This document shows, in pieces, positions 1-3,000 of a DNA stretch of 64,000 nucleotides. Position numbers: made by a program. The stretch lies in assembly GCF_017348835.2 (NCBI RefSeq), contig NZ_CP071375.1; one strand, 5' to 3'. Source of the DNA: Escherichia coli (GTDB lineage Bacteria; Pseudomonadota; Gammaproteobacteria; Enterobacterales; Enterobacteriaceae). The first letter of the stretch is position 1, and each line of letters opens with the position of its first letter.

Positions 1-3000
1 TATTATTTTCACAATTTAATAACGCCATATGGTTAGCTTTAAGGCTAATAGGTTCTTTCCCATTCACCCTTATCCAGACATCTTTTTCAGTCAATAAAAC
101 AATACAAGGTTGGTCGCTGCAAATCCTCATACATGTACTCCTGAGTGCGAATAAAAGACCAGTTCTCGCTAAAGCAAAGCGATACCGGGAAATGGTTATA
201 TAATTGTATGATGAATATAAACATGCATAAAAATAACGAGTTTTACTAATATTACAAATTTTTATAGAAATTTCTCATGTACATATTTTTTTACAGGATA
301 AATAACAGGCAAAAAAAAGCGCGGGGTGGGGCCGCGCAAAAAGTATGACATTTTTGTTTGCAGCAATTTTTATGAAAACGTTGCCATACTCAAAAGGCCT
401 AAGGCCAGGCGGCGTAATGTTATTTAAACAATTACGCCTTCAGCGGAATAGTGGTTACGCTTTCACACACATAACGTGGTAAATACCGTCAATAATTTCA
501 GTCCCTTCAGTTTCGTGTTCAAATCCAGGGAAATGATGGTCCCAGGATTGCAGCGAGCGTAAATAACTTACTTGCGGACTGTTTTTATCGCCGAAGTTTT
601 CACCAGACAGCAGCATCGGGATTCCTGGCGGATACGGGATAACTGAGTTTGCCGCGATGCGTCCTGGCAGATTTTCAATGGATACCAGTTCGACATTGTT
701 GTCGACAATCGCGTTGTACGCTTCACGCGGGGTGATTTCCGCCACCGGCAGGCCGGAATAGGCTTCGTTCAACCGTGCGCCAGGATTGTTTTCTTTCAGC
801 CAGGCAAACATGGTGTCACCCAGATCGTGAATCCCCATGTTCGCGTAAGTGTCAGGATATTGTTCAACAAGTTCCGGCATCACCTGCGCCAGCGGTGTGT
901 TGGCGTCATAGTGGCGTTTGAAGGAGCAAAGGGTGTTAACCAGAGTCCCCCATTTCCCACGGGTTACGCCCATAGAGAACAGGAACATAATTTGGAAGTC
1001 AGTGGTGCGGGTAGGCACAATGCCGTGGCGACCAAGCCAGGCAGTGACCAGTGCCGCCGGAACACCGGTTTCTTCCAGTTCACCATCTTCACCCATTCCC
1101 GGAGCAAGGATGCTGACTTTAATCGGGTCGAGCATACTCCAGTTATCCGGAATATCTTTGAAGCCGTGCCAGCTTTCGCCCGGATGCATTACCCAGCAGT
1201 CCTGAACGGTGGTCAGCAGTTTGGTTGGTGCGTCAGCAAAGTCATAGGTTTTGCCGGTTTGTGGGTCGGTGACGACTTCTTTGTTCCACGGTTTGAAGAA
1301 CCAGCTACCGTCAGCGGTGAACTCTTTATACAGCCGCGCCATCGCCTGACGGAAATCAACCGCTTCGTCGATCACTTCCTGCGTCAGTGACAGGCCGCTG
1401 TTGCCGTCCATCATCGACACCGCCACGTCGTTGGATGCGCAGATGGCATACAGCGGGGAGGTGGTGGCATGCATCATGTAGGCCTGGTTGAAGCGGGAGA
1501 AGTTAATCGCCCACGACCTTCACGTACATGAATATAAGAAGCCTGTGAAAGCGCATTCAGCAGTTTGTGGGTGGAGTGGGTGGCGAAAACGGTAGGACCG
1601 TTGTGATCGCCAGGTTCGCCGCGCATGGCATAGTGATCGGCATAGATCGGGTTGAAACGTGCATAGCCGTACCAGGCTTCGTCAAAGTGCAGACGATCGG
1701 AGGTTTTTTCCAGCAGATCCTGCGCTTCTTTAGCGTTATAACACACGCCGTCATAGGTGCAGTTGGTCACCACGCAGTAAGACGGTTTTTGCCCGGCTTT
1801 GTCTTTAGTCAGCGGGCTTTCACTGATTTTCTTCTGCAAGGTTTCAGGTTGCATTTCCTGAGGATAGATTGGCCCGATAATGCCGTAGCGGTTGCGGCTT
1901 GGCACCATGTAGACCGGTTTCGCGCCTGTCAGCATCAAGCCTTGTTCGATGGATTTATGGCAGTTACGGTCAACGACCACGACATCGTTATCGGTCATGC
2001 AAGCCTGCATGATGGTGCGGTTAGAGCCGGAAGTACCGACGACTACCGACCAGGAGCGATCGGCACCAAATACGCGTGCGGCATATTTTTCGCTTTCGCC
2101 AAATGCGCCAGTATGGTCAAGCAAAGAACCGAGGGAAGTTCGTTCGATGCCCATGTCGGTGCGGAACAGATTTTCACCATAGTAGTCATGGTAGAAACGT
2201 CCGGCGGGTGTTTTGGTAAAACCAACGCCGCCCTGGTGGCCTGGCGCTGCCCAGGAATATTCATGGATGTCACTATATTTCATCAGCGCGCTGAACAGTG
2301 GCGGCAACAGCTGCTGGCGGTAGCGGGTCATCGCGGCAACGGCGCGTCCGGCGATAAAGTCGGCGGTATCTTCCAGAATCCAGGCGAATTCATCGACAAG
2401 CTCCAGCAGATCCCGGTCCATTGCGGCGAGGGCTTTTTCCCGATCGCCCAACAGGAAGACCGGCACGTTTTGTTGGCGCTCATGAAGCTTACCGATCAAT
2501 TGTCTGACGTTTTGATGTTCGTCCGGATGTTCCATTTGATAGCTGAACATCAGGCAGTCAATGGCTTCGTTCGAAGAGAGAATGGCAAAACCATCATCAA
2601 AGGAGGTGGATTTAACCACGGTAACATTTTGCTGGCTTAAAGCATCTGCCAGACGCTCAACGGCGTTACCGACCCAGGTGTCTTGATGGAGAAACTCGCT
2701 TTCAACAATTAATACTTTCATCATTGCTTACCCGGTTATGAAGGAATCTTCGTTGCGGGCAAGTATCTTCCGGCCTTTTCGGGCTGTAAAGCGCGTGAAA
2801 AACAAACATTTTTGAAATATTTATTTTTATAAACAATGCGTTATGTGATTATTTTAAATTATTTTCACTGCTTATTATCGACGGCTAAACTATTTTTTTG
2901 GCTGATACTGATATCGTCTTTAGCCGGGAAACGTCTGGCGGCGCTGTTGGCTAAGTTTGCGGTATTGTTGCGGCGACATGCCGACATATTTGCCGAACGT

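Follow-up and report, generated by a model that had tools for sequence, protein, structure and literature searches.

The adiA gene in the window (the whole stretch of Escherichia coli DNA analyzed here, 64,000 nt) is very probably a true and recent pseudogene, in which the inherited contraction of a G4 run to G3 in a porcine O108:H9 subclone is expected to have switched off the arginine-dependent acid-resistance system (AR3). AR3 consists of AdiA, AdiC and AdiY, of which AdiA is the biodegradative, acid-inducible arginine decarboxylase and AdiC the arginine/agmatine antiporter. The frameshift as such is already known, since RefSeq flags the gene as a pseudogene. Searches of the literature turned up no dedicated or directly relevant report on natural frameshifts or pseudogenes of adiA in E. 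coli.

The adiA pseudogene lies on the minus strand at 455..2724, and over 2270 nt it matches adiA of the strains PE164 and F2_81 at 100% identity. Instead of an uninterrupted ORF of about 755 codons, a 1-nt deletion leaves two ORFs, both on the minus strand. The proximal ORF (1474..2724, 416 aa) has the C-terminal end IHVREGRGRLTSPASTRPT followed by the stop, and the distal ORF (455..1477, 340 aa) has the N-terminus MMHATTSPLY and is in the original adiA frame. Both are present exactly as an earlier, sequence-only reading had described them. An ATGA at 1474-1477 forms a 4-nt overlap between the proximal-ORF stop and the distal-ORF start. There are two ATGs at the 5' end of the gene, and the start chosen by PGAP is the second, at 2721.

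A single-base deletion had been placed at about 1505-1512, and alignment with an intact allele (strain 88-3493) confirmed and narrowed this position. The single difference at the junction is one G short of a G4 run, with GGG at 1510..1512 (minus strand, codons Gly404-Ala405) remaining from the ancestral GGGG. Intact adiA reads GGTCGTGGGGCGATT and the window GGTCGTGGGCGATT, or, in codons, GGT CGT GGG GCG ATT (G-R-G-A-I) versus GGT CGT GGG CGA TT. The intact sequence offered as an example in the sequence-only reading, cgtggcgcgattaac (cgtggcgcg...), has to be corrected to cgtggggcgattaac (cgtggggcg), although the encoded R-G-A-I-N is the same. Behind the deletion, an out-of-frame tail of 11 codons (RLTSPASTRPT) and a TGA stop (1477..1509, minus strand) replace the native residues 405-415 (AINFSRFNQAY).

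When the G is put back, a single ORF of 755 codons results, closed by one terminal stop, and its product (755 or 756 aa, depending on the ATG used) agrees at every residue with a natural E. coli AdiA that is present on about 70 contigs. Because repair of this one base yields a natural full-length AdiA, the lost G is the only lesion in the gene. The nucleotide identity of the window gene to intact alleles is 99.6%, and the synteny melBAR-adiA-adiY-adiC-eptA is that of annotated E. coli, which confirms the orthologous position (melR, at 2920..3828, flanks adiA). The gene combines two features of a genuine frameshift pseudogene, an indel relative to intact orthologues and a known full-length protein after repair.

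The G-restored protein has the domain set of the Orn-Lys-Arg decarboxylases, which are fold-type I PLP enzymes, namely OKR_DC_1_N (PF03709, residues 18-134), OKR_DC_1 (PF01276, residues 140-589) and OKR_DC_1_C (PF03711, residues 615-742), together with the S-T-H-K lysine of this family. As the ORF is split, the window gene is a pseudogene of the family and not a functional member. With the E. coli AdiA of AR3 (structure 2VYC) it shares the locus, the synteny, more than 99% nucleotide identity and, once the frame is restored, the three Pfam domains. It differs in that its frame is broken after residue 404 and no full-length enzyme is encoded.

The proximal fragment retains the native residues 1-404, which make up the wing domain, the linker and most of the PLP-binding domain. 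It keeps K386, the PLP lysine of the HSTHK motif, and the break follows 18 residues after it. The distal ORF corresponds end to end to residues 416-755 of 2VYC, and residues 405-415 are encoded by neither fragment. The break falls inside PF01276. In the structure of the near-identical Providencia enzyme, the PLP-binding domain extends from 193 to 439 and PLP is bound to K386 (PMC8983666), and by these limits the AdiA break is within the PLP-binding domain. The truncated product is without part of this domain, and without the whole aminotransferase-like and C-terminal domains. Around the break, AdiA and its paralog CadA share one of their best conserved stretches (STHKLL..SQAS.IHV...N...FN.AYMMH.TTSP), and the lost segment lies within it.

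The Providencia enzyme superimposes on the E. coli enzyme with 0.52 Å and is a decamer in which the dimer interface completes the active site (PMC8983666). Since the active site forms at this interface and the enzyme is decameric, no active arginine decarboxylase would be expected from the split gene. We infer that neither fragment is active and, from the established roles of AdiA and AdiC, that arginine-dependent acid resistance has probably been lost in carriers.

The same allele was found in separate isolates. PE164 (NZ_CP114128.1, reverse complement of 4481450..4545449) differs from the window at 3 of 64,000 bases; these SNPs, at 63943, 42469 and 35576, are all within the LEE part, and the window may derive from a sibling isolate or from a different version of the assembly. 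PE164 is a published, highly virulent pig isolate, an O108:H9 aEPEC/ExPEC from a piglet in Nanjing, China, that was sequenced on Illumina NovaSeq; the O108 lineage was assigned to phylogroup E, and adiA, arginine and acid resistance are unmentioned in the paper (PMC12233904). The identical frameshift allele is present in the complete genome of F2_81, from a pig rectal swab in Australia. In both complete genomes, PGAP labels the gene 'arginine decarboxylase, frameshifted'. Among the adiA matches listed, all others span 2271 nt in their record, and those of PE164 and F2_81 span 2270 nt.

Among 5,426 complete E. coli genomes, 5,410 were found to contain adiA. A 61-nt query centered on the deletion had an exact full-length match in two of the 5,426, PE164 and F2_81 (four records fell into the band of at least 99% identity, of which these two were full-length and exact, and the other two presumably are the records with less than 80% coverage). 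About 5,390 other complete genomes carry the extra base (G4) at this site. The cluster table lists 19 contigs for the exact 416-aa truncated product, together with its junk tail, and across 33 collection blocks this product was read from at least 24 contigs. These contigs were drawn from NCBI drafts, Logan SRA-run assemblies and ENA, with one metagenome among them, and most are 20-50 kb long, as is typical of short-read drafts. G3 was present in every carrier locus fetched and G4 in the intact relatives. The 27-nt deletion junction was absent from the JGI metagenome contigs scanned.

The sequence-only reading had left room for a sequencing or assembly error, i.e., for a homopolymer miscall that dropped one G from a gene that is truly intact. 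Indel errors do cluster in homopolymers, and a few other assemblies with a split adiA (L018-L020) have several broken neighbor genes, as is typical of long-read noise. However, the G run is just four bases long, the allele was recovered from two complete genomes of different countries as well as from many SRA-run assemblies and short-read drafts, the PE164 sequence is from Illumina, and the roughly 5,390 complete genomes with G4 represent all sequencing technologies. Moreover, the carriers differ among themselves by a few SNPs, an adiC nonsense mutation and an IS insertion, and are therefore separate isolates. Because the same allele recurs in many assemblies that are independent in isolate and technology, sequencing error can be rejected, an artefact being scarcely credible, and by this comparison the deletion is real and inherited. 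A functional AdiA in two pieces, with the ATGA overlap coupling translation of the distal ORF and the fragments assembling into an active enzyme, is very unlikely. The distal C-terminal fragment could be translated from the overlap, with a weak AGG five nt upstream of the distal ATG; in addition, K386 is retained by the proximal fragment, and the distal one keeps its native frame. But both pieces lack residues 405-415, eleven conserved positions of the PLP-binding domain, and have junk in their place, the split arrangement is young and limited to one subclone, and some of the carriers then lose adiC or gain an IS in the distal ORF, as expected of an unmaintained locus. Least probable of all, to the point of being negligible, is programmed recoding, by which -1 ribosomal frameshifting or transcriptional slippage would restore full-length AdiA. 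Nothing beyond the presence of a frameshift speaks for it. A slippery heptamer of the type X XXY YYZ was not found from 60 nt upstream to 45 nt downstream of the deletion, an interval that includes the stretch between deletion and stop, and the only homopolymer runs in adiA (A6 at nt 1013 and G5 at nt 1771) are both distant. With neither a slippery site nor a long homopolymer near the deletion, recoding was rejected. The split is not a conserved one either, as it is confined to one subclone, and the ancestral and near-universal state is the unbroken adiA ORF.

The favored explanation is thus an inactivating deletion that is passed on within a clone. In an ancestor of the porcine O108:H9 attaching-and-effacing subclone, one G dropped out of the G4 run, with replication slippage as the most plausible cause, and the descendants have inherited this deletion. 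The predicted outcome is a shift of frame after Gly404, eleven wrong residues and a stop. In the absence of AdiA there would be no agmatine for AdiC to exchange, and AR3 would be off. The lysine system cadCBA is still intact in the window.

The deletion is recent. A sister draft of the same lineage (L027, GCA_900195445.1) has an intact G4, and over 8.27 kb it differs by 1 SNP from F2_81 and by 2 SNPs from PE164, none of them in adiA. As L027 is one SNP from F2_81 and still has G4, the deletion is a recent event within a clone, with the ancestral intact state still circulating. Two sets of SRA-run assemblies (L023 and L025) also have an intact adiA, with 8 SNPs in its flanks and 0 within it. 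Compared with intact alleles, private substitutions number one in the repaired AdiA (I36V), two in AdiC and zero in AdiY. Neither adiY nor adiC has a pseudogene flag in PE164 and F2_81. With these two genes intact and a single private substitution in AdiA, there is no long record of decay that would prove the function to be lost. L023 (SRR21280401), a close relative, has a deletion in adiC from 7567 onward, with a 410-aa product, and one T is missing in its adiA-adiY spacer, a loss that L025 has too.

One further sequence with the same G deletion does not fit a single haplotype. It is a metagenome scaffold (L010, ENA ERZ28574091, 1..7251) that is 40 SNPs away from PE164, of which 8, all synonymous, are inside adiA. 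The scaffold is mosaic, alternating between PE164-like alleles and alleles of another lineage, and its adiA is 1 SNP away from an intact metagenome allele (L028). The deletion in L010 could be due to independent slippage at the same run, to a short recombination tract or to a chimeric assembly.

Some carriers have acquired additional lesions. In SRR13992753 (L007), adiC has the nonsense mutation W170*, from TGG to TAG at L007 7001, and in SRR21743672 (L021, adiC at 4746..6023) adiC is split into the same 169 and 267 aa. In GCA_020732225.1 (L011), the distal half of the frameshifted adiA is interrupted at locus position 4593 by one end of an IS3-family element that is present in multiple copies; the contig itself terminates inside this element (4593..4699). 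The later adiC and IS lesions are consistent with a dead pathway, but they do not prove selection for loss.

Other adiA null alleles of E. coli were detected at the locus region 1254..3523 (loci L013 and L015-L020). In L018-L020 and in the short-read L016, the A6 run near nt 1016 is one A short, L013 lacks a C at nt 1022, and L015 and L017 have no indel but a premature stop, with a product of 413 aa. In L018-L020, adiY or adiC is split as well and the assemblies resemble noisy long-read ones, so that for the A6 loss the short-read L016 alone is firm. These alleles resemble the window allele in the split appearance of the gene, with an identical 340-aa distal ORF called, but differ from it in lesion type and haplotype. 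Their haplotypes are 19-34 SNPs away within adiA and unrelated to the frameshift subclone. On the evidence of these alleles, natural inactivation of adiA is a recurrent event of low frequency.

Lineage-specific frameshift pseudogenes at short homopolymers occur in pathogenic E. coli and Shigella, and loss of the cadA (lysine decarboxylase) pathway, which benefits Shigella and EIEC, sets a precedent for adaptive loss. What the assemblies document for adiA is the lesion, its inheritance, its recency and the further decay in some carriers. The loss might in addition be adaptive rather than neutral, if a pig-associated pathogen benefits from having no arginine decarboxylation and agmatine export; we regard this as unlikely. 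The frameshifted subclone spans two continents and accounts for at least 24 contigs, but the spread of a clone with a neutral, hitch-hiking mutation fits the same data, and just 2 of 5,426 complete genomes have the allele. Likewise, the further independent lesions in the pathway (the adiC nonsense mutation and the IS insertion) are predicted by relaxed selection, and the possible second haplotype with the same deletion, L010, may be a chimeric metagenome scaffold. The different adiA nulls in other E. coli lineages also point toward adaptive loss. A more far-reaching version, in which AR3 loss was selected in a global pig-associated O108:H9 aEPEC/ExPEC clone, with G4 as a recurrent switch on two haplotypes and adiC knock-outs to follow, is more doubtful still. 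If selection did act, AR3 loss would be a pathoadaptive step comparable to the loss of cadA in Shigella. The two cases are alike in the single-step inactivation of an acid-inducible amino-acid decarboxylase, with secondary lesions in some descendants. They are unlike in that here cadCBA is intact and adiA is lost, and no evidence of selection was obtained.

Carriers, including PE164, are probably without one of the three amino-acid-dependent acid-resistance systems. Loss of AR3 could have consequences for passage through the stomach and for survival in acidified feed, and could change how arginine decarboxylase tests are to be read. The frameshift allele is also a clean marker of a subclone seen in China and Australia. 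Otherwise, adiA of the window is a routine, recent, lineage-specific pseudogene that leaves the understanding of AdiA and acid resistance unchanged, and the only route to something more notable would be proof that the loss is selected or recurrent.

The lysine-dependent system had been expected to be kept, and this holds. The cadC, cadB and cadA block (18671..24136, minus strand) is intact, as judged from the annotation of the matching genome, in which PGAP set no pseudogene flag for cadC (22598..24136), cadB (20898..22232) or cadA (18671..20818), and cadA has a full-length translation of 715 aa. At its start, the window contains the 5' end of adiY (1..130, minus strand; coordinates carried over from the annotation of PE164), whose product activates the adi genes. 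The remainder of adiY, the entire adiC and the glutamate-dependent system are beyond the window.

A complete LEE type III secretion island (about 24400..64000) adjoins cadC. It contains ler (33741..34112) and the intimin beta gene eae (54595..57414, minus strand). A partial integrase (24396..24555) is found beside IS and toxin-antitoxin remnants, and ARAGORN detected no tRNA genes within the 64,000-nt window. At the end of the window, and running off it, is espF (63974..64000), a proline-rich repeat gene that PGAP marks as frameshifted and incomplete in PE164; this flag could reflect an assembly problem or a real truncation. Between lysS and yjdJ, the ghoS/ghoT type V toxin-antitoxin pair (14785..15282) is intact.
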